Assembly (NCBI RefSeq): GCF_004010195.1
Contig: NC_057752.1
Span: 5,447,223 to 5,498,836 of the forward strand
Length of the DNA stretch: 51,614 nt
Direction: 5' to 3'
Source: Chiloscyllium plagiosum
Lineage: Eukaryota
The position numbers and the translations under genes were made by a program. Below the pieces are notes generated by a model that was not told the origin of the DNA, ran no database searches, and saw only the letters and a list, made by a program, of their open reading frames with translations. Shown here in pieces: positions 1,905 through 42,385 of this stretch. The first letter of the stretch is position 1, and every line of letters starts with the position of its first letter.

Positions 1905-4222
1905 AGTTTGTGGATGTACCTACTAGAGAAGGCGCAAAACTTGACCTACTCTTGAGAAATAAGGCAGGTGACTGAGTTGTCAGTGCGGGGAGCACTTTGG
2001 GGCCAGCGACCATCATTCTATTAGTTTTAAAATAGTGATGGAAAAGGATAGACCAGATCTAAAAGTTGAAGTTCTAAATTGGAGAAAGGGCAATTTTGGC
2101 GGTATTAGGCAAGAACTTCCAAAGACTGATTGGGGGCTGATGTTCGCAGGTAAAGGGACGGCTGGAAAATGGGAAGCCTTCAGCAATGAGATAACGCGAG
2201 TGCAGAGACAGTATGTTCCTGATAGGACGAAAGGAAAGTGTGATAGGTTTAGAGAATGCTGGATGACTGAAGAAATTGAGGGTTTGGTTAAGAAAAAGAA
2301 AGAAGCATACATCAGGTATAGACAGGATAGATCAAGTGAATCCTTAGAAGAGTATAAAGGCAGTAGGAGTATACTTAAGAAGGAAATCAGGAAGGAAAAA
2401 AGGGGACATGAGCGAGCTTTGGCAAGTAGAGTTAAGGAGAATCCAAAGGGTTTTTTACAAATACATTAAGGACAAAGGGTAACTAGGGAGAAAATAGGGC
2501 TCGTCAAAGATCAGCAAGGTGGCCTTTGTATGGAGCTGCAGGAGATGGGGGCGATACTAAACAAGCATTTTGTATCCGTATTTACTGTGGAAAAGGATAT
2601 GGCAGATATAGAATGTAGGGAAATAGATGGTGACATCTTGAAAAATGTCCATATTACAGAGGAGGAAGTGCTGAATGTCTTGAAATGCATGAAAATGGAT
2701 AAATCCCCAGGACCTGATCAGAATTCTGTGGGAAGCTAGGGAAGAGATTGCTGGGCCTCTTGCTGAGATATTTGTATCATCGATAGTCACAGGTGAGGTA
2801 CTGGAAGACTGGAGGTTGACTAACGTGGTGTCAATATTTAAGAAAGGTGGTGAGGACAAGCCAGGCAACTATAGACCGGTGAGCCTGACGTCGGTGCTAG
2901 GCAAGTTGTTGGAGGGAATCCAGAGTGACAGGATGTATGTGTATTTGGAAAGGCAAGGACTGATTAGGGATAGTCAACATGGCTTTGTGCATGGGAAATC
3001 ATGTGTCACGAATTTGAGTTTTTTGAAGAAGTAACAAAGAGGATTGATGAGGACAGAGCGGTAGATGTGATCTGTATGGACTTCAGTAAGGCGTTCGACA
3101 AGGTTCCCCATGGGAGACTGGTTAGCAAGGTTCGATCTTATGGAATACAGGGAGAACTAGCCATGTGGATACAGTGGAGAATTGTTTTTCAGATTGGAGG
3201 CCTGTGACCAGTGGAGTGCCACAAGGATCGGTGCTGGGTCCACCACTATTTGTCATTTTTATAAATGATTTGGTTGTGAGCATAAGAGGTATAGCTAGTA
3301 ACTTTGCAGATGACGCCAAAATTGGAGGTGTAGTGGACAGCGAAGAAGGTTTCCTCAGATTACAACAGGATCTTGACCAGATGGGCCAATGGGCTGAGAA
3401 GTGGCAGATGGATTTTAATTTAGATCAATGTGAGGTGCTGCATTTTGGGAAAGCAAATCTTAGCAGGACTGATACACTGAATGGTCAGGTCCCAGGGAGT
3501 GTTGCTGAACGAAGAGACCTTGGAGTACAGGTTCATAGCTCCTTGAAAGTAGAGTCGCGGGTAGTTAGGATAGTGAAGAAGGTGCTTGGTATGCTTTTCT
3601 TTATTGGTCAGAGTATTGAGTACAGGAGTTGGGAGGTCATGTTGCGGCTGTACAGGACATTGGTTAGGCCACTTTTGGAATATTGCATGCGATTTTGGTC
3701 TCCTTCCTATCGGAAAGATGTTGTGAAACTTGAAAGGGTTCAGAAACGATTTACAAGGATGTTGCCAGGGTTGGAGGATTTGAGCTATAGCGAGGGGTTG
3801 AATAGGTTGGGGCTGTTTCCCCTGGACCGTCGGAGGCTGAGAGGTGACCTTATAGAGGTTTGTAAAATCATGAGGGGCATGGATAGGATAAATGGACAAG
3901 GTCTTTTCCCCAGAGTAGGGGAGTCCAAAACTAGAGGGCCTAGGTTTAGGGTGAGAGGGGAAAAATTTAAAAGGGACCTAAGGGGCAACATTTTCATGCA
4001 GAGGGTGGTGCGTGTATGGAATGAGCTGCCAGAGGAAGTGGTGGAGGCTAGTACAATTGCAACATTTAAAAGGTATCTGAGTGGGTATATGAATAGGAAG
4101 GGTTTGGAGGGATATGGGTTGGGTGCTGGCGAATGGGAATAGATTAGTTTGGGATACCTGGTCGTCATGGACAAGTTGGACCAAAGGGTCTGTTTGTGTG
4201 CTGTACATCTCTATGACTGTAT
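1905..4222 (+). mobile_element. CR1-clade LINE, 5'-truncated and frameshifted ORF2 (endonuclease C-terminus, RT, 3' UTR)
   Basis: Fragments PGNYRPVSLTSV, MDFSKAFDKVPH, SGVPQGSVLGP, FADD, YRTLVRPLLEYC, LERVQKRFTRMLPGL. 3' tail ...ctgtacatctctatgact. Confidence 0.93.
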
Positions 4223-6350: not shown

Positions 6351-6843
6351 AGGGAAACTGCATTAGAAAAATGATTAATTTACATGGTTAAATGCCCAAG
6401 AGGTGTGAGTTTTATCGAGACCATGTGTTTGACATCCTGGTTCTAGGATTTATTCACAAAATTACAAAAGGACCATTTATTTTGAAGTGCGAAGAGGAAA
6501 AAAATTGCAGAAACGTTGTTCCATTTTTCATGTCAATCTCATTTATATGTTGATGCATAGCACATTAAAAATAATTTACATTTTAACAGCATTTTGACAC
6601 TCTTAAATTAAGCAGCCAAGTAGATGTTTGCGTGTTTCAACCTCCACTGTGACTTCTGGTTTATTTTTTTTTTGAAAAGTTATGAACAAATTTTCAACTT
6701 TTGTAAATGTGTAAAGAACTAAACCTCTGTCTTGTAGAATTACTTTCAAGACATTGTCATAAAATTGCACTCTAGATAATTTTAGTCTTTTGGATAAATC
6801 AATTGAATTATTTGCCAGTTTGTGTTTGGTTCTTGTATTGTAG

Positions 6844-7076
6844 ATGAGGCAGAGCACCGTCAATATGAAGAATGGCTGCTCCATACACAGCAGCTGCTTC
6901 AAATGCAGCTGAAGTTTTTAGAAGAACAAATTGGCGTCCATAGGAAGTCCAGGAAAGCATTATGTGCCAAGCAACGAACTGCTAAGAAGGCAGGGCGTGA
7001 GTTCCCCGAAGCAGATGCAGAAAAACTTAAACGGGTGACAGAGCAACAAAGTAAAATCCAGAAACAACTTGATCAG
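6844..7076 (+). CDS. KMT2D: KMT2D coding exon (approx. human exon 38), conserved coiled-coil EAEHRQYEEWLLHTQQLLQMQLKFLEEQIGVHRKSRKALCAKQRTAKKAGREFPEADAEKLKRVTEQQSKIQKQLDQ
   Basis: Acceptor ttgtAG at 6842-6843 and donor CAG|GTAG; 233 bp. The residues IGVHRKSRKALCAK and FPEADAEKLK match KMT2D rather than KMT2C. Confidence 0.95.
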
Positions 7077-7682
7077 GTAGGAATTGCAGAATAAATCTTG
7101 AATTTCAAAACCGAAGCTTGTTGGGTTTTGACTAATGAAGCCACTCCTCACCTTGATTTTTAAAATAATCTTGGGCAGCAGTGCCACGAGCATGGTAATA
7201 TATTACAAATAGGATTCTGGACTTAGCCATCCAATTATCCCTGTTGTGCCTAATAATACAGCTCTATGCATTTGTTTGCATGTATGTTTGGAAGCCAGGA
7301 ACTTGCCTCTTAACTTTAAGGTGTTTCAAAAATATTCTTTCCAAGAAATGAAACAACCTCCAGCTTTCTGAAGGAATGTTGTCTGGGTTTCCTTTTTACT
7401 TTCAGTTTAACCTTTACTGATGAATTCTGCATACCTCCTGGTTGCAATTCTGAATATATTAAAAACTTATTTTTCCAACTTATTGGACTGCTAAAACAAT
7501 TTTGGCTGCACAAAAAGAAAGTCCCTGTTTCTAAAACTGCCTTCCTGATGAAACAAATTGACTAAACTTGGTTTAGAATGAGTCGTGTCAATGTTGTGTT
7601 CTGGTCACATGGCTTGTTATGAAATTGTGCTGGCTAATTAAGTTTCATGATGTTTAGTTCGAAGTTTCATATTTTGTTTCAG

Positions 7683-10600
7683 GTCCGTAAACAACAAAAG
7701 GAGCATACAAATCTGATGACAGAATATCGGAATAAACAGCAACAGAAATGCTCTTTATCTCCTTCGGGGATGATGCCAACAACCTCATCACAGAATCCGA
7801 GAGTAATGCCCAAACTTTCAACACCCATGTTATCAGCAGCATTAGCCCAGCAAGGAGGCGCAATCCTTGGATCTCCAGCAATAGCTCAACAACCAAGTAC
7901 ACTAATAGGGCACACAGGAAATCTAAGAGTGCCACAAATTGGGGCTACAGTACCACTGCAGCAGGGCCCAGCATTCTTAACGTCAGCTGTGACCCAGCAA
8001 CCAGAATATCCCCCTTCCTCAGGAACTGTATCTTCTGCTCCTTCAACCAGTTTTTTTTCTGGAAATTCTGCTGCTCAAACGCTTACAAATGAAAGCAGAC
8101 TCCTGCAGGAGAGACAGCTTCAACTGCAACAAAGAATGCAACTTATTCAACAGCAAGGACTTGTTGGGCCATCTCAGCAGCAAAGCATCATGGGGAAGTT
8201 ACAGCAGCAAGGTATCATTGGGCAGCTTCAGCCAACAACGCAACAAAGTATTGTGGGTAATAAACCAACACAGCAGGGTATCATGGGTCAACAGCAGCAA
8301 GCCTTCATTGGCCAACAGCAAGGGATTGTTGTCCAGTCACAACATCAACCTGCTCAGCAGCAGCAAGTTCTTGCAGGGCAGCAGCTACCACAACAGCACA
8401 ATAACATTGGTCAAACACAGCAACAGTCAGCAACACAGCACCAACAGAATCTGGCACCTCAACAGCAGCATTTGAGATTGCTGAGTCAACAGCAAGGCCT
8501 CCTTGTGCATCAGCAACCCCACCAACAGGGTCTTGCAAGTCATCCAAAACCTCAACGACCCCAGCAAGGTCTTATGGCTCAGCAGTTGACGCATCAGCAA
8601 GGTCTTGCAGTTCAACAACAAGTGCTCACTTCCCAGCAGCAGCAACAGAATCTGGTTTTACAGCAGCAGACATCCAATGCTCCTTTGCAACAGCAAGGGC
8701 TCATAGGGCATCAACAAGGAGTTGTATCCCAGAATCAGCAATTGGGAACAATACCACTACAGCAGCATCACCTTCAGGCTGTATCAGGACAACTCCATCC
8801 ACAAAGTGTTATAAGACCAAACAATATCCTGAGACTTTCCACATCCTTCCAACAGCAAAGCACAATGGGGCATCAAGCTCGAATGCAGGGTATAATGAGG
8901 CAGCAATCTCAGGATGTTTTAGGCCAACATCTTGCAACACAAGGCATAATGGGACAGCAGACTCCTCTGCAAGTCATCAGGCACCAATTGCCAGGCATGA
9001 TAGGGCAGGGCATGAGGCAACAGCATCCACCCCAGGTCTCAGTGGAGCAAGGACAGCAGCCTCCAGGAACAATGGGACAGGGACAGCAGCATCAGCCCCA
9101 GAGCACAATTGGACAGGGACAGGAAAATCAGCCCCATGCTGTTTTGGGAATCGGACAGCAACCACAGCCTTCTCTCCAGCCGCAGGGAACAATGGGGATG
9201 GAGCAGCAGCAGCAACCTCTTCAAACCCAGGGAAGGATGGGGCAGCAGTCACAGCCACTATCCCAGCCCCAAGGTATGGTGGAGCAAGGAGTTGGACAGC
9301 AGAACTCAATGGGTCAGCAGCCTCCTCAGGGTCCACTAGGGCAAGGAATGCCACAACAACAGTCATCCCAAGGGACAGTGGGGATGGGACAGCAACAGCA
9401 GTCACCCCAGAGTACAGTGGGGCTGGGACAGCAGCAAACGCAGCCTCAGGTCACAATGGGGATGGGAAAGCAGCAGCCCCACCATCAGACTGCAATGGTG
9501 GTGGGACAGCAACATGCCCAGCCTCAGGTTGGGGTGGGCATGGGGCAGCAACAAGCCCAGCCTCAGGGCGTGGTGGGCATGGGACAGCAGCAGGCCCATC
9601 CTCAGGGCGTGGTGAGAATGGGGCAGCAACAGGCCCAGCCTCAGGGCGCATTGGGGATGGGGCAGCAGCAGGTCCAGCCTCCGGGCACAGTGGGAATGGG
9701 ACAGCAACAAGCCCAGCCTCAGGGCATGGTGGGAATGGGACAGCAACAAGCCCAGCCTCAGGCCTCAGTGGGAATGGGACAGCAACAGGCCCAGCCTCAG
9801 GCCTCGGTGGGAATGGGGCAGCAACAGGCCCAGCCTCAGGCCTCGGTGGGAATGGGGCAGCAACAGGCCCAGCCTCTCGTCTTGGGAATGGGGCAGCAGC
9901 AAGCCCAGCCTCAGGGTGCAGTGGGGATGGGGCAGCAACAGGCCCAGCCTCAGGGTGGGGCGGGGATGGGACAGCAACAGGCCCAGTCTCAGGGCGGGCT
10001 GGACATGGGACAACAACAGGCCCAGCCTCACAGCACATTGGGGATGGGACAGCAACAGGCCCAGTCTCACAGCACATTGGGGATGGGACAGCAACAGGCC
10101 CAGCCTCAGGGCGCGGTGGGGATGGGACAGCAACAGGCCCAGCCTCAGGGCGTGGTGGGGATGGGACAGCAACCGGCCCAGCCTCAGGGCGCGGTGGGGA
10201 TGGGACAGCAACCGGCCCAGCCTCAGGGCGCGGTGGGGATGGGACAGCAGCAGGCCCAGCCTCAAGGCGCGGTGGGGATGGGGCAGCAACAGGGTCAGCC
10301 TCCAGGCGCTGTTGGGATGGGACAGCAACAGGGTCAGCCTCAGGGCGCGGTGGGGATGGGACAGCAACAGGGTCAGCCTCAGGGCGCGGTGGGGATGGGA
10401 CAGCAACAGGCCCAGTCTCAGAGCATGGTGGGACTGGGGCAGAAACAGGCCCAGCCTCAGGGTGCAGTGGGAATGGGACAGCAACAGGCCCAGCCTCAGG
10501 GTGCAGTGGGAATGGGACAGCAGCAGGCTCAGTCTCAGGGCGCATTGGGAATGGGGCAGCAACAGGCCCGGCCTCTCAGCGCAGTGGGGATGGGACAACA

Positions 10601-13457
10601 ACAGTGTCAGCCTCAGAGCATGGTGGGGACAGGACAGCAAAAGGCGCAGCCTCAGGGCGCAGTGGGAATGGGACAGCAGCAGGCCCAGCCTCCAGGCGGG
10701 GTGAGCATGGGACAGCAGCAGGCCCAGCCTCCGGGCGGGGTGAGCATGGGACAGCAGCAGGCCCAGCCTCAGGGCGCGGTGGGAATGGGGCAGCAACAGC
10801 CCCAGCCTCAGGGCACATTGGAAATGGGGCAGCAACAGGCCCAGCCCCCCAGTACAGTGGGGATGGAACAGCAACAGATGCAGTCTCAGGCCGCAGTGGG
10901 AATGGGACGTCAACAGCCCCAGCCTCGTGGCACATTGGGGATGGGACAGCACCAGGCCCAGCCTCTGGGAACACTGGGGATGGAGCAGGTGCAGACCCAG
11001 CTTCAGGGCACGGTGGGGATGGGACAGCAACAGGCCCAGTCTCAGGGCACAGTGGGGATGGAGCAGGTGCAGGCCCAGCCTCTGGGCACTGTGGGGATGG
11101 GACAGCAGCAGGCCCATTATCAGGGTGCAGTGGGGTTGGAGCAGCAACAAGCCCAATCTCAGGTCACACTCGGAATAGGACACCAACAGCAATCGTCCCA
11201 GAATACGGTGGGGCTGGGACAGCCTCCGGGTACGTTGGGGGTGGTGCAGCAGCAGCAGCACTTATCTCAGGATGCACTGGGAATGGGGCAGCAACAGCCT
11301 CAGCTTCAAGGCACAGTGGGGATGGAACTGCAGCAGGTTCCGCCTCAGGGCACAGTGGGGATGGGACAGCAGCAGGCCCAGCCTCAGGGTACAATAGGAA
11401 TGGGACAGCAACAGGTCCAGTCTCAGGGCACGGTGGGAATGGGGCAGCAACAAGCCCAGCCTCCGGGCACGGTGGGGGTGGGACAGCAACAGCAGTCATC
11501 CCAGGGCCTAGTGGGTCAACAACGCCAGCCTCCGGGCATGGCAGGCGTTGTTCAGCAGCAGCCCCAGCCTCAGGGCACAATGGGGATGGGACATTCCCAG
11601 CTTCGGGGCACAGTGGGGATTGGACAGCAATCTCAGCCTGAGGGTCAGATGGGGCAGGTAAAGCAACAGCCTCGAGGTTTGATTGGGATGAGACAAGGAC
11701 AGCAGCAACAACTACTGCAGGGCCTGATGGGGCAGTGGCAATTTCAGCCTCAGGCTGGAATTCGGCAGGGGCAACCACAAAGCCTGATAGGGCAAGGGCA
11801 GTTGCCACAGAGCTTAATAGGTCAAGAACAGGGACAGCAACAGCCATGTCCACAGAGTATTTTGGTGCAGGGTCAGGGACAGCAACAATTGCAGAATCTG
11901 ATAGGACAGAGACAGTCACCAAGTACTATGGGGCAAGGACAGCGCATGCAGAGCTTAGTTACAGTTGGCGGGCAACAATCCCTCCAGGCTTCCGGTATGA
12001 TGGGGCAGGAGAAAGAGCAGGAACAACAACCCACAAGCACAGTGAGGCAAGGGCAACAGCAAGGCAAAATTGTAATGGAACAAGAGCCTTTGCTGCCTTC
12101 CCAGTGCATAATGGGGCAGGACCGTAACCAGCCATCAACTCAGAATATGGTGAGGCAGCAACAGCTATCCAAGAATGCAGCAGGACTTGTGCACACTCAG
12201 GGTATGATCTATCAGAATTTACAAACACGAGCAGTGACATCAGTGCAGCAACCAACGCAGCAAGGTGTTGCAGGGCAGCCGCGGCTTGTGAGTCAGCATG
12301 GTCAATTAATGAGACGTGTGCAACAACAAACTGTAGCAGGTCTACAACAAAACAATGGTCTCAGTTTGCAAGGAGTGGTGCGAGTCACAACATCTCAGCA
12401 GCATGGAACTTTGGGAGATCCAAGACATGGGGTACAAAACATCGTAACTTCACAGTCATTGCAACAGCATGCAGGTCTGCGTTCAGTTCATATAACTGGT
12501 CAGCAGATTGGTTTAGGCCATTTTCGTCCAGGCATGGTCTATGTTCAGCAGGTTAAAGCAGAACATGGCGGGAAGCCACAAGAGATGGCTCACCTACTTC
12601 AAAGCAAGCGCGCAAGGCAGAATGTGGGATCAGGAAGTGAATTAGTGTCTGGCCAGGCTCATTCCAATCATTCGCAAATGTCACGTCCAGAATTAAATCA
12701 AACTAATTTGGGAGATGTACCTCCACAAGGTGAAACTATGGAAACAGTAATACAGCTGCAACCAGAATTGCTTAAAGACAATGAGTCTGAAGAAAGTAGT
12801 GTTTGCGTGACAGACCCAGTAGCAATTATGCCTCAAAAGGTACCTGATTCAAACTCTGCTACGTCAGCAGTAAAACCACATGGGATTATTGGAAAAGCAA
12901 GTTCAGGTACTGAGGTGCAAACCAGTATTAATGTTGAGATCCATGAACAAAGTGACTTGAAGACCGCTTGTGCATTTGACTTCCCAATATCGCCTCAAAG
13001 CCATGCAGCAAAAGAGGAATGTGCTGGACTGAGATCAGAATCATCGCTGTTGAATCAATCCAACGGGCAAGAGGAATATGCACAGAAAGTCACAGGAAAG
13101 CAAGACAATTGTTCTAAATTACAGGAATGTGTTGCTAAGGACACCAACACAGGGGGTAAAGGTCACACAGTGAAACAGGAAAGCATTGATGCAATTCGCT
13201 GTGGATTTCCAGAAGGAACTGTGAAGCGAGAGTCAAATACTGACTGTATCAGTGCTTTGAATGCAGGGGATCATTCTTTTCTTGCTCCAAGGTCTGAGGC
13301 TGGACAGCTGCTGCTTCAGAAATTGTTACGCACTAAGAACTTGCAGCTTGTTGCACAGCGCTCTGGAGATGGAACACACTTGACTGTGAAAAGTCACATT
13401 GAAAGCAAAGCTGTGATGATTGATCGAAAACTACAAGGTGCAACTACAAATTCAGAG
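7683..13457 (+). CDS. KMT2D: KMT2D giant exon (approx. human exon 39), 1925 codons, Q/G/M/P-rich low-complexity (prion-like) region ending in the conserved EAGQLLLQKLLR (LxxLL) motif
   Basis: Uninterrupted ORF 7647-13466. Acceptor tttcAG|GTC begins VRKQQKEHTNLMTEYRNKQQ, continuing the previous exon. Donor GAG|GTTAGT. Confidence 0.95.
9381..11651 (+). repeat. Coding minisatellite: about 55-59 tandem copies of a 39-bp unit (consensus GGGATGGGACAGCAACAGGCCCAGCCTCAGGGCGCGGTG = GMGQQQAQPQGAV)
   Basis: Counted by eye in the translation. Most units are exactly 13 aa, a few are 9-14 aa, and all length changes are in frame. Confidence 0.97.
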
Positions 13458-30599: not shown

Positions 30600-32316
30600 C
30601 ACAACCAATGGATAACATTGGCGTTCTGCAGTCCTGCCAAATTCAACAATTGGTGGTGCAGAATTAAACAAATCACCGGAGGAGTACACTCTACAAACAT
30701 CCCCATCTTCCATGATTGGGAAGTCCAGCCCATCAGTAAAAGATGAGGCTGAAGTGTTTGTCACAATTTTTTGCCAACTTGATTCACTCCACATGAAATT
30801 TAAAAAGCAGCTGGTGTCAGAGTTCTGCAAAGGCTCTGGGCCCTGACAACATTCTGGCAATGGTACTGAAGATGTGTTCTCCCAAACTTTCTGTGCCCTA
30901 GCCCTTAACCAAGCTGTTACCAGCACAGTGACAACATTGGCACCTAGCAGGTAAAGTGGAAAATTGCCCAGTTATGCCCTGATCAAAAAGTAGACAAATC
31001 CAATGTGGCCAGGTGTTGCCCAATCTATCTCCTCTCAGTCAGTAAATTGATGAAAGGGGGCATCAACAGTATTATCGCACAGCACTTAACAATAACCTGT
31101 TCACTGCTTGGTTTGGGTTCTGCAAGGACTACTCTGCTTTTGACCTGATTACAGTCTTGGTTCAAACATGTACAAAAGAGCTGACCTCCAGAGGTGGTGA
31201 GAGTACTTTCCTTGACATCAAATTAGCATTTGTTTATATGTGTCATCAAGGGCCCCTATCAAAACTAGAATCAGTGGGAATTGGGTGGAAAATTATTTTG
31301 CTGGTTGGAATCATGACAGCACAGAGGAACATTGTTGTGGCTGTTGGAGGTCAGTCATCTCAGCTGCAGGACTTCTCTGATGTTCCTCAGGGAAGTGTGC
31401 TCAGACCAGTCATCCTCAACTGCTTCATCAATGATGTTCCTTCCATCATAAGGTCAGAAGTAGGAATGTTTGCTGATGATTGGACAATGTTCACCATTTG
31501 TGACTTCTCATGTACTGAAGCAGTCCATGCCCAAATGCAGCAAGACCTGGACAATATCCAGGTTTGGACTGGCAAGTTGCATTTGCGCCACACAAGTGCG
31601 TGGGTTGCCAGTCTCCAACAAGAGAATCTAACCATTGCATCTTGATACTCAGTGGCAATACCATCACTGAAACCCCCACAATCAAAATCCTGTGGGGTCA
31701 ACATTTACCAGAAACTGAACTGGTCTATCTATATAAATACTATGACTATAAGAGCAGGTCAGAGGCTGAGAATTTTGAAGCGAGTGCTTTGCCTTCTGAT
31801 TCCCCAAAGCATGCCTGCCATCTACAAGGTACAAGTCAGGAATGTGGTGGAATTCACCCCACTTGCCTGGATGAGTGCCACTCCAACAACATTCAGGAAG
31901 CTTGACAAAACATCCACTTGATTGCCACCTTGTCTGCAAGAATTCATTCTCTCCACCACCCATGCACAGTGGCAGCAGTGTATTCGATCTATAAGATGCA
32001 CTATAAGAATTCACAAAGTCTCCTCAGACAGCAGCTTCTAAACCCACAACCACTCGCATCTAGAAGGTCAAGGGCAACCAATATATGGGAATGCTATCAC
32101 CTGCAAGTTGCCCTCCAAGCCATTCACCAACCTGACTTGGAAATGTATTGCATTGCCCAGATCCTGTTACTCCCTCCTTAGTGGCATTATGCAACTACCT
32201 AAAGCAAATGGACTGTTGCAGTTTAAGAAAGCAGCTTGCCACCATTTACTTGAGGGTAACTAGGGATGGGCAATAAATGCTGGCCCAGCCCGTAATGCGC
32301 ATATTCCATGAATGAA
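30600..32316 (+). mobile_element. LINE (CR1/L2 superfamily, family distinct from the main CR1), decayed RT and 3' tail
   Basis: FLDIKLAF, VPQGSVLRPVILNCFIND, GMFADD, MQQDLDNIQVW and IYKVQVRNVVEF; tail ...ccatgaatgaat. Confidence 0.88.
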
Positions 32317-36101: not shown

Positions 36102-37197
36102 GAAGCTTCCTCGGACTGTCCAATAAAGGAAAGAATTGTAGTGCATCATTATAGTAACAATATGTCTGTCCTAGATGTTCACCAGCTTCCCATATTACAA
36201 CCAGAGAGCTCTCCACTCTCATCCCCCAGTGTATCGTCACCTGGGACTCCAGCAGAGTCAAATAAACCTGATCCACCAGTCGAGTCACCAAAAATCAAAC
36301 ATTCTCTTCCACTGGATGAAAAGCAGTTTGAGGAACCTCCGCCACAACTGAAGAGGTGGAGGGGAATCCGTTGGAAACGTTTGGAGTTTAAAGTCTTATT
36401 TCACAAGGGGAAGTTTAAGCATGTGTTTCAGCATGAAATTGAAGAACTTATTCAGAAACTGGGAACATCATTAAAACCAGACCCCCTGCCCAAGGACACT
36501 AGGAGATGCTGCTTCTGTCATGAAGAAGGTGATGGAATGACAGATGGGCCTGCAAGACTCTTGAACCTTGATTTGGATTTGTGGGTCCACCTAAACTGTG
36601 CATTGTGGTCCTCTGAAGTGTATGAGACTCAGGCAGGGGCACTGATAAATGTGGAAGTGGCTTTTCACCGAGGACTCACCACAAAGTGTGCTTTTTGTCA
36701 GAAGACTGGAGCCACTACTGGTTGTCATCGGGTGCGATGCCCAAACACCTATCATTTTGCTTGTGCTATTCGTGCCCGTTGTATGTTTTTTAAGGACAAG
36801 ACGATGCTTTGCAGTCAACATAAACTGAAGGGAGCGAATGAGCAGGAAATTAGATGTTTTGCTGTTTACCGCCGTGTCTACATTCAGAGAGATGAAGTGA
36901 AGCAGATCGCTAGCATTGTACAGCGTGGCAAGCGCAGTCACATGTTTAGGGTTGGTGGACTGATTTTCCATACCATTGGTCAGTTGCTGCCCCATCAGAT
37001 GCAGGAATTCCACAGTGTGACAGCTCTTTATCCCATTGGATATGAAGCAACACGGATTTATTGGAGCATGCGATACACTAACAAGCGTTGCTGCTACCAC
37101 TGCACCATCAATGATACAAATGGGAAACCGGAGTTTGGCATCCAGGTTATTGAGCAAGGGCATGAGGATCTGATTGTTACTGATTGGACCCCACAAG
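36102..37197 (+). CDS. KMT2D: KMT2D coding exon (approx. human exon 48): extended PHD (C2HC pre-PHD + PHD) and FYRN, start of FYRC
   Basis: Contains DTRRCCFCHEEGDGMTDGPARLLNLDLDLWVHLNCALWSSEVYETQAGALINVE...MFFKDKTMLC...FRVGGLIFHTIGQLLPHQM...YPIGYEATRIYWS. Acceptor ttttcAG and donor G|GTAAGA. Confidence 0.97.
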
Positions 37198-37404
37198 GTA
37201 AGATCAGTTTGTGCTTGTCAGGGTAATTTTTTTTCACTGGACAATAGAATTATAATTATTTTCAACACTTTGTAATTCTGTGTAAATTTCACGTAGGTAA
37301 TGCTGTTGCTTTGTCCTTCTAATATAATATTGAACTTTATGTAGACTAAGTACAATGGACACCCCACCGCCCCGCCCCAACCACCACCACTGCCGTTCCA
37401 GTAG

Positions 37405-41485: not shown

Positions 41486-41525
41486 CCAGACGTTTCGTTA
41501 CCCTACTAGGTAACATCTTCAGTGG
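41486..41525 (-). ncRNA. Minimal hammerhead ribozyme motif (antisense copy)
   Basis: Minus strand reads cca-CUGAAGA-u-guuacc-uaguag-gguaac-GAAA-C-GUC-ugg. Confidence 0.85.
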
Positions 41526-42385
41526 GCCTCAGGCGAAGCAATGCTGAAAGTTCCTGCTTTCTATTTATACGTTTGGGTTTCTTTGGATTGGTGATGTCAT
41601 TTCCTGTGGTGAAGTCACTTCCTGTTCCTTTTCTCAGGGGGTGGTAAATGGGATCTAACTCAATGTCTTTGTTAAGTGTGTTCCGGTTGGAATGCCATGC
41701 TTCTAGGAATTCCCGTGCGTGTCTTTGTTTGGCTCGTCCTAGGATGGATGTGTTGTCCCAGTCGAAGTGGTGTCCTTCCTCATCTGTATCTAAAGATACT
41801 AGTGAGAGAGGTTGATGTCTTTTTGTGGCTAGTTGATGTTCAAGTATCCTGGTGGCTAGTTTTCTGCCTGTTTGTCCAATGTAGTGTTTGTTACAGTCCT
41901 TGCATGGTATTTTGTAAATGACGTTAGTTTTGCTCGTCTTTATAGGATTTTTCAAGTTCATTAGCTGCTGTTTTAGTGTGTTGGTGGGTTTGTGGGCTAC
42001 CATGATGCCAAGGGGTCTGCGTAGTCTGGCAGTGACAAACACTACATTGGACAAACAGGCAGAAAATTAGCCACCAGGATACATGGACACCAACTAGCCA
42101 CAAAAAGACATCAACCTCTCTCACTAGTATCCTTAGATACAGATTAGGAAGGACACCACTTCAACTGGGGCAACACATCCATCCTAGGACGAGCCAAACA
42201 AAGACATGCACGGGAATTCCTAGAAGCATGGCATTCCAACCGGAACACACTCAACAAAGACATTGAGTTAGACCCCATCTACCTGAGAAAAGGAACAGGA
42301 ACTGACTTCACCACAGGAAATGACATCACCACCCCAAACATATAAATTAGAAAGCAGGAATTTTCGGCATTGCTTCGCCTGAGGC

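Follow-up and report, generated by a model that had tools for sequence, protein, structure and literature searches.

The stretch of Chiloscyllium plagiosum DNA analysed here (the window, 51,614 nucleotides) carries part of what sequence comparison identifies as the KMT2D gene of this shark, and one exon of the gene contains a coding minisatellite, a tandem array of 59 units that together encode 755 amino acids (aa). We propose, with a probability of about 0.5, that this array would be a disordered, multivalent low-complexity segment aiding the partition of KMT2D into enhancer condensates. KMT2D, the gene of Kabuki syndrome and also a cancer gene, has a low-complexity domain by which enhancer condensates are nucleated; as this domain is irregular in human, its sequence rules are poorly defined. 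The proposal takes its support from the pattern of selection within the repeat unit, the open frame of the array, its persistence in Chiloscyllium punctatum and in the whale shark, and the recurrence of arrays of the same type in 18 of 104 bony-vertebrate orthologs.

Tandem Repeats Finder placed an array with a period of 39 bp at 9378-11492, with a score of 1960 for 54.5 copies and 78% matches, and parsing of the encoded protein gave the 59 units, in agreement with the first-pass annotation of this DNA, which had counted 55-59 frame-preserving copies of a 13-aa repeat in a 5775-bp exon. In the protein parse, 52 of the 59 units are 13 aa long and the others measure 12, 12, 11, 11, 9, 14 and 10 aa; the reading frame is kept by every one of these variants and there is no stop codon. 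Period-13 identity reaches 0.72-0.87 in four 150-aa segments starting at 9483-10383 (about 9500-10800), while shuffles give about 0.2, and it goes down to 0.45 at both array edges. The array had indeed been described as most homogeneous at about 9700-10800 and decaying on both sides.

We observed that over 757 aa the array consists of 33.6% Gln, 20.2% Gly and 7.4% Met, and that it holds only 18 charged residues, one aromatic residue (Tyr) and one Cys, so that it was rightly called nearly charge-free and aromatic-free. This is the Met-rich, aromatic-poor composition of Met-rich low-complexity domains. The earlier statement of one Met per unit is an approximation: Met occupies unit position 2 in 47 of the 59 units (55 Met in total), and when only the 50 full units are considered it is found there in 44, with Leu, Ile, Val or Thr instead in the other 6. 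With a frame-preserving tandem unit of 39 bp and a copy number of 59 versus 50 between two species, the array has the unit length (10-100 bp), the kept frame and the difference between genomes that mark a coding minisatellite, and is a candidate variable-number tandem repeat.

A genome-wide search with the exact degenerate unit pattern (one pattern, zero mismatches) gave 5 matches, all within the array; a mobile or dispersed repeat was therefore rejected. In Pfam no family corresponds to the array (the single match, Lysostaphin_N, has 19.3 bits for a cut-off of 60), and a search of the ESM Atlas gave an uninformative best match of 0.84 with low recognition. A second frame of the forward strand is open for 1078 codons (8405-11641) and spans the array; it is probably a by-product of the repeat codon pattern.

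The gene is, from its domains and relatives, an ortholog of KMT2D (MLL4). Its identity is fixed by a downstream exon encoding an extended PHD finger (ePHD) and an FYRN domain. The nearest match, P0001, is a partial protein from C. punctatum, 98% identical in the flank, whose aa 3691-4529 map onto exons of the window and in which Pfam recognizes FYRC and SET domains; the ePHD-FYRN-FYRC-SET set of KMT2D is thus found across the window exon and P0001. Among the best 120 of 802 matches to the C-terminus of P0001, the named relatives are KMT2D or hypothetical and none is KMT2C. The attribution of both gene and exon made from the letters of the stretch was therefore right. We also noticed a paralogous ePHD-FYRN exon with 60% identity on another contig (G000:C5:107855086-107856153), probably that of KMT2C.

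The exon with the array is the equivalent of human exon 39 and follows the exon 38/39 coiled coil, which is the placement of the KMT2D prion-like domain. Its acceptor was confirmed by spliced contigs and its donor is placed, presumptively, from a GT and the alignment with P0001; a Pfam search of the 5775 bp found no family. In human, exon 39 spans aa 3581-4510, a length of 930 aa or 2790 bp (PMC7200597, PMC8386614), close to the 2.8 kb given in the annotation. Its shark equivalent exceeds this by 995 aa, of which the array supplies 755.

The array is not an assembly artefact, since 48 of the 50 full 13-aa units tabulated (of 59) are distinct in DNA, an array is present in C. punctatum and the first units are present in the whale shark. 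The over-expansion that the annotation had itself raised as a danger is excluded by these distinct units, by the C. punctatum array and by a longest exact repeat of only 58 bp.

For transcription, 4 of 24 listed sequencing runs were mapped onto 6800-9380, a region ending at the array edge; none of the runs is recorded as RNA in the run index. Contigs of runs X5, X9 and X17, which come from three studies, splice the intron upstream of the exon and cover the exon to 9380 (X9 via two overlapping contigs), and they extend past 9380 by 378, 300 and 281 letters. If colinear with the genome, these contigs would end at 9758, 9680 and 9661, and 30-mers are first repeated at 9616-9645, 9690-9723 and 9729-9762. 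Because such ends would coincide with the first repeated 30-mers, we infer that transcripts enter the array, where the assembly graph then breaks. From the single-cell run X22 there were 3 reads only, in 8192-8626. The three contig sets, in which rare forms are dropped, contain no loose end after 7076 that would indicate exon skipping, and no AG with a T-rich tract is found in or just after the array (at best 7 T of 20, versus 11-12 at true acceptors). Splicing-out of the array is thus unlikely, the RNA scope being its 5' part. In run X17 we also observed a C>T difference from the window at 7913, at the third position of a His codon.

The C. punctatum array has 50 units and 636 aa. Its edge units match those of C. 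plagiosum one to one, and its core is built of other variants, including further GLG/GIG units; in the 566 aa upstream, 557 are identical between the two species, and yet the unit number differs by 9. Part of the 59 versus 50 difference could be assembly collapse, but the differing unit types of the core indicate that the turnover between the two Chiloscyllium species is real. A partial whale-shark protein breaks off after the first 4-5 units, which are in register, so that the array predates the split of the two genera. Searches for other cartilaginous fishes returned only these C. punctatum and whale-shark proteins, with no ray, chimaera or non-orectolobiform shark, and when cluster representatives were searched with HMMER, the 9 KMT2D-like fragments obtained matched the exon end only and 2 further proteins were unrelated.

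We then compared the region between two conserved anchors, cut from the best 120 of 802 matches. After removal of 15 rows (7 duplicate isoforms, 5 unnamed, 3 without an anchor), the set consisted of P0001 and 104 bony-vertebrate rows, a biased sample without human, coelacanth, lungfish, lamprey, ray or chimaera. With a periodic array defined by a score of at least 20 (shuffles score 3-5), such arrays were detected in 26 of the 104 orthologs: in 14 of 16 birds, 2 of 5 turtles, both tarpons, 6 of 11 frogs, 1 of 3 among caecilians and salamander, and 1 of 58 other teleosts. None was found in the 5 squamates, the 2 mammals, the alligator or the gar. The array match of the frog Hymenochirus resembles a frameshifted stretch.

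Eighteen of the 104 orthologs (the 14 birds, 2 turtles and 2 tarpons) have Met/Gly/Gln arrays without any charged or aromatic residue. The bird unit is an 11-mer (QQPGVMGQASM type), that of sea turtles a 14-mer (QQPQQQSMLGQVSL type) and that of tarpons a 7/14-mer (QQQGMMG/QQQGVVA). Like the shark array they lie in frame in the same exon and share a hydrophobic-hydrophobic-Gly-Gln core; unlike it they have other periods and another site, directly after the conserved QERQLQ segment. Bird arrays passing the threshold (P0014, P0017, P0021, P0046 and others) measure 43-214 aa, contain 12-18% Met and lie at about aa 156-372 of the exon. The array-bearing turtles (P0005, P0027) are sea turtles, the tortoise having only about 6 loose copies, and the tarpons are P0056 and P0057. 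Frog arrays are of Gln/Leu/Val types and lie downstream of a conserved block, KNPQLR; in the frogs P0022, P0031, P0032 and P0050 the exon-equivalent region reaches 1547-2070 aa. By the same measure of length, the two Chiloscyllium arrays have 550 and 544 aa, the Met-Gly arrays at most 214 aa and those of frogs at most 276 aa. The shark array is therefore at least 2.5 times longer than the Met/Gly/Gln arrays of bony vertebrates, and it has no long polyglutamine (polyQ) run.

Shark, gar and alligator all have loose hydrophobic-hydrophobic-Gly-Gln copies at the QERQLQ-adjacent site, which suggests that an old seed motif has been amplified several times. The annotation had taken the array for a product of this lineage. 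This stands insofar as arrays are not general in vertebrate KMT2D, but since Met/Gly/Gln arrays recur in birds, turtles and tarpons, the shark array is, judging from these orthologs, the longest case of a repeated vertebrate process and not the invention of one lineage. In the literature searched on KMT2D repeats, orthologs and polyQ evolution we found no description of these arrays, most subscription papers and supplements being outside this scope, and a term search of PMC13584762 returned none either. It is a known general pattern that tandem repeats gather in disordered regions (PMC2718493).

Selection was examined within the unit. All pairs of the 50 full units gave proportions of nonsynonymous (pN) and synonymous (pS) differences of 0.17 and 0.39. 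In the V-GMGQQQ half (positions 13 and 1-6) these values are 0.054 and 0.33, and in the AQPQGA half (positions 7-12) 0.159 and 0.236; the V-GMGQQQ half is under purifying selection and more strongly constrained than the AQPQGA half. Such an uneven constraint is like that of the sticker and spacer arrangement which had been proposed for the unit. For transitions, the number of copies per possible change is 1.4 to charged residues, 5.2 for other replacements and 8.9 for silent changes. CAA or CAG represent 254 of the 757 codons and none of them has turned into a stop; the lone 'stop' variant of the substitution table comes from the way in which changes are classed within the commonest codon and is not real.

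How such an array could work may be considered from the human domain. The prion-like domain of the human protein (aa 3561-4270) forms clusters in cells, for which it requires a polyQ tract at aa 3898-3974 (bioRxiv 2024.05.06.592652; PMC10731558). Shark and human domains share the gene, the exon, its conserved ends and a Gln-rich, aromatic-poor low complexity. They differ in that the shark exon has 1925 aa versus 930, and that it has no Gln run above 5 and a strict period with Met-Gly. The long polyQ tract is absent from the shark region, whose 513 Gln include one run of 5 and none longer, whereas the two mammals have 7 and 12 runs of at least 5. Conversely, [MLVI]G[QE] motifs number 69 in the shark region versus 3 in the two mammals. 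Met-rich, aromatic-poor domains can drive phase separation, as described for yeast Pbp1 (PMC8394241). The array would have arisen from an old vertebrate motif, Q-[GS]-hydrophobic-hydrophobic-G-Q, through slippage or unequal exchange, the motif having been amplified separately in other lineages. Val/Met pairs placed every 13 residues might act as weak stickers between Gln/Pro/Gly spacers, in place of the long runs of polyQ by which the human domain is driven to cluster. More speculatively, the divergence of units may prevent the chain from turning into a perfect repeat prone to aggregation.

Several points weigh against this condensate function. The 78 of 104 orthologs without a periodic array imply that periodicity is not needed for KMT2D function. 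The shark array may lie downstream of the position of the mammalian polyQ and so may not be its functional equivalent, if a borderline placement is right: the KNPQLR block is best placed at aa 345-374 of the shark exon with 20.1 bits, and in 30 shuffled sets the maxima averaged 16.1, with a highest value of 20.5. RNA evidence extends only into the 5' part of the array. Tree-parsimony changes by codon position (48/46/75) indicate a moderate constraint, and the pN/pS counts are not independent because the units share ancestry. Most of the changes to charged residues lie in the conserved half, which confounds avoidance of charge with position in the unit. Moreover, the signals of selection would also fit a chain merely kept in frame, uncharged and soluble.

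This last point leads to the main rival, a tolerated expansion: a repeat-prone disordered linker would drift in length while selection keeps it in frame, without charge and without aggregation, its periodicity being idle. It would account for arrays in scattered lineages with different periods and for their absence from most orthologs, for a difference of 9 units between species so similar upstream, for the wide range of lengths of bird arrays and for the weak constraint on the spacer half. It is quite possible, but we would not call it probable, as the constraint differs along the unit and is concentrated on V-GMGQQQ, where silent sites vary freely, and as three bony-vertebrate lineages and sharks have amplified a similar hydrophobic-Gly-Gln motif, a likeness that a shared old seed could explain. 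A special case of the condensate function would be a methionine redox switch of the Pbp1/TDP-43 kind, in which oxidation of the 55 Met would dissolve KMT2D condensates. The prevalence of Met at position 2 in the full units, the Met content of bird arrays and the Pbp1 precedent (PMC8394241) agree with such a switch; the replacement of Met by Leu, Ile, Val or Thr in 6 of the 50 units and the GLG/GIG units of C. punctatum fit a hydrophobic and not a sulfur-specific role, which makes it unlikely.

The repeats could also fold into a beta-solenoid or an ordered cross-beta rod. Single-sequence AlphaFold2 gave for 20 units a strand-rich model with a pLDDT (predicted local distance difference test) of 64.3 and a predicted template-modelling score (pTM) of 0.39, the five models ranging from 36 to 64. 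However, the control, in which largely the same DNA (9922-10701) was read out of frame, reached higher values (pLDDT 81.8, pTM 0.70), and Foldseek found no match in PDB at E≤0.001, so that the solenoid was rejected. A bias of AlphaFold2 towards solenoids for repeats has been published (PMC11795689), and a proline content of 7.8% and a grand average of hydropathy (GRAVY) of -0.81 also speak against such a fold, which is very improbable. From its composition, we treat the array as disordered. That the assembly has over-expanded the array, or that splicing removes it from the mRNA, is hardly credible. RNA data reach only the 5' part of the array, the phase 0-0 exon could be skipped in frame and GTGAG motifs occur at 9612, 10701 and 10740, but against this stand the DNA-distinct units, the array in an independent species, and the spliced contigs that reach 9380 and run on, with neither a loose end nor a suitable acceptor.

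Other systems resemble the array in part. The domains of yeast Pbp1/ataxin-2, TDP-43 and Pab1 are Met-rich, aromatic-poor and disordered, and phase-separate with Met as the main hydrophobic residue (PMC8394241); unlike the shark array, they are not regular tandem arrays and belong to RNA-binding proteins, and a redox response has been shown for them. KMT2D does not appear, by a term search of the main text, in a census of Met-rich prion-like proteins of human (PMC9312190). [quoted passage not shown] The polymerase II CTD is a Tyr-sticker phosphorylation code conserved across eukaryotes. In flies, too many perfect repeats of this CTD lead to static foci, so that both the number of repeats and their divergence bear on CTD foci (bioRxiv 448506). 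The likeness to glutenin or elastomeric repeats put forward in the annotation holds for composition, the chain being periodic and rich in Gln, Gly and Pro as in high-molecular-weight glutenin; it fails otherwise, with no Pfam match, one Tyr and one Cys, and a nuclear enzyme instead of a protein of storage or structure. Glutenin depends on motifs that contain Tyr and on cross-linking by Cys.

A broader idea, which we regard as doubtful, is that the condensate domain of KMT2D has been rebuilt repeatedly with two interchangeable grammars, long polyQ runs in mammals and periodic Met-Gly-Gln sticker arrays in sharks, birds, sea turtles and tarpons. The number of units would then be a selected heritable dial of enhancer condensation, possibly redox-gated, with 59 units as its extreme. 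If this is true, the natural series of 0, 4-20, 50 and 59 units would be a test of valence versus enhancer function. The regular 13-mer and the shorter arrays of birds, sea turtles and tarpons are modular versions of the domain, in which number and positions can be cleanly varied, and if such arrays can replace the polyQ tract they would reveal the features that condensate function needs. If inert, the array is one more fast-evolving repeat in a disordered region, a common thing. What gives the array its value is how large and regular it is, and the natural series for comparison to which it belongs.

Table. Features of the window, with forward-strand positions counted from its first letter.
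Feature	Position	Strand	Remarks
39-bp coding minisatellite	9381-11645	+	59 units, 755 aa, in frame; commonest unit GMGQQQAQPQG(A/T)V
Homogeneous core of the array	9537-10820	+	Unit number and types differ from C. punctatum (unit-level alignment)
KMT2D exon, human exon 38 equivalent, conserved coiled-coil region	6844-7076	+	97.5% to P0001 aa 1807-1886; numbering of PMC7200597
606-nt GT..AG intron	7077-7682	+	Spliced contigs of runs X5, X9, X17
Exon, human exon 39 equivalent, Gln-rich low-complexity	7683-13457	+	5775 bp, 1925 codons, phase 0-0, no stop
RLLQERQLQ..RMQL conserved segment, then loose QQ-[GS]-hydrophobic-hydrophobic-GQ copies	8097-8327	+	Array site of birds, sea turtles, tarpons
Tentative equivalent of the bony-vertebrate conserved QGVIAKNPQLRHL block	8715-8804	+	Best tile 20.1 bits, borderline
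GQLLLQKLLR (LxxLL-type) conserved segment near exon end	13302-13331	+	Served as anchor
Downstream KMT2D exon, extended PHD (zf-HC5HC2H) and FYRN	36102-37199	+	Pfam; 99.5% to P0001

The GQLLLQKLLR segment used as anchor is of the type called LxxLL or nuclear-receptor box. Elsewhere in the window, broken intronic fragments of a LINE-type (long interspersed nuclear element) retrotransposon with reverse-transcriptase (RVT_1) matches were observed at 1972-4142 and 31046-31645. On the reverse strand, a weak GIY-YIG match below the Pfam cut-off lies at 41506-42066 and is possibly a fragment of a Penelope-like element.

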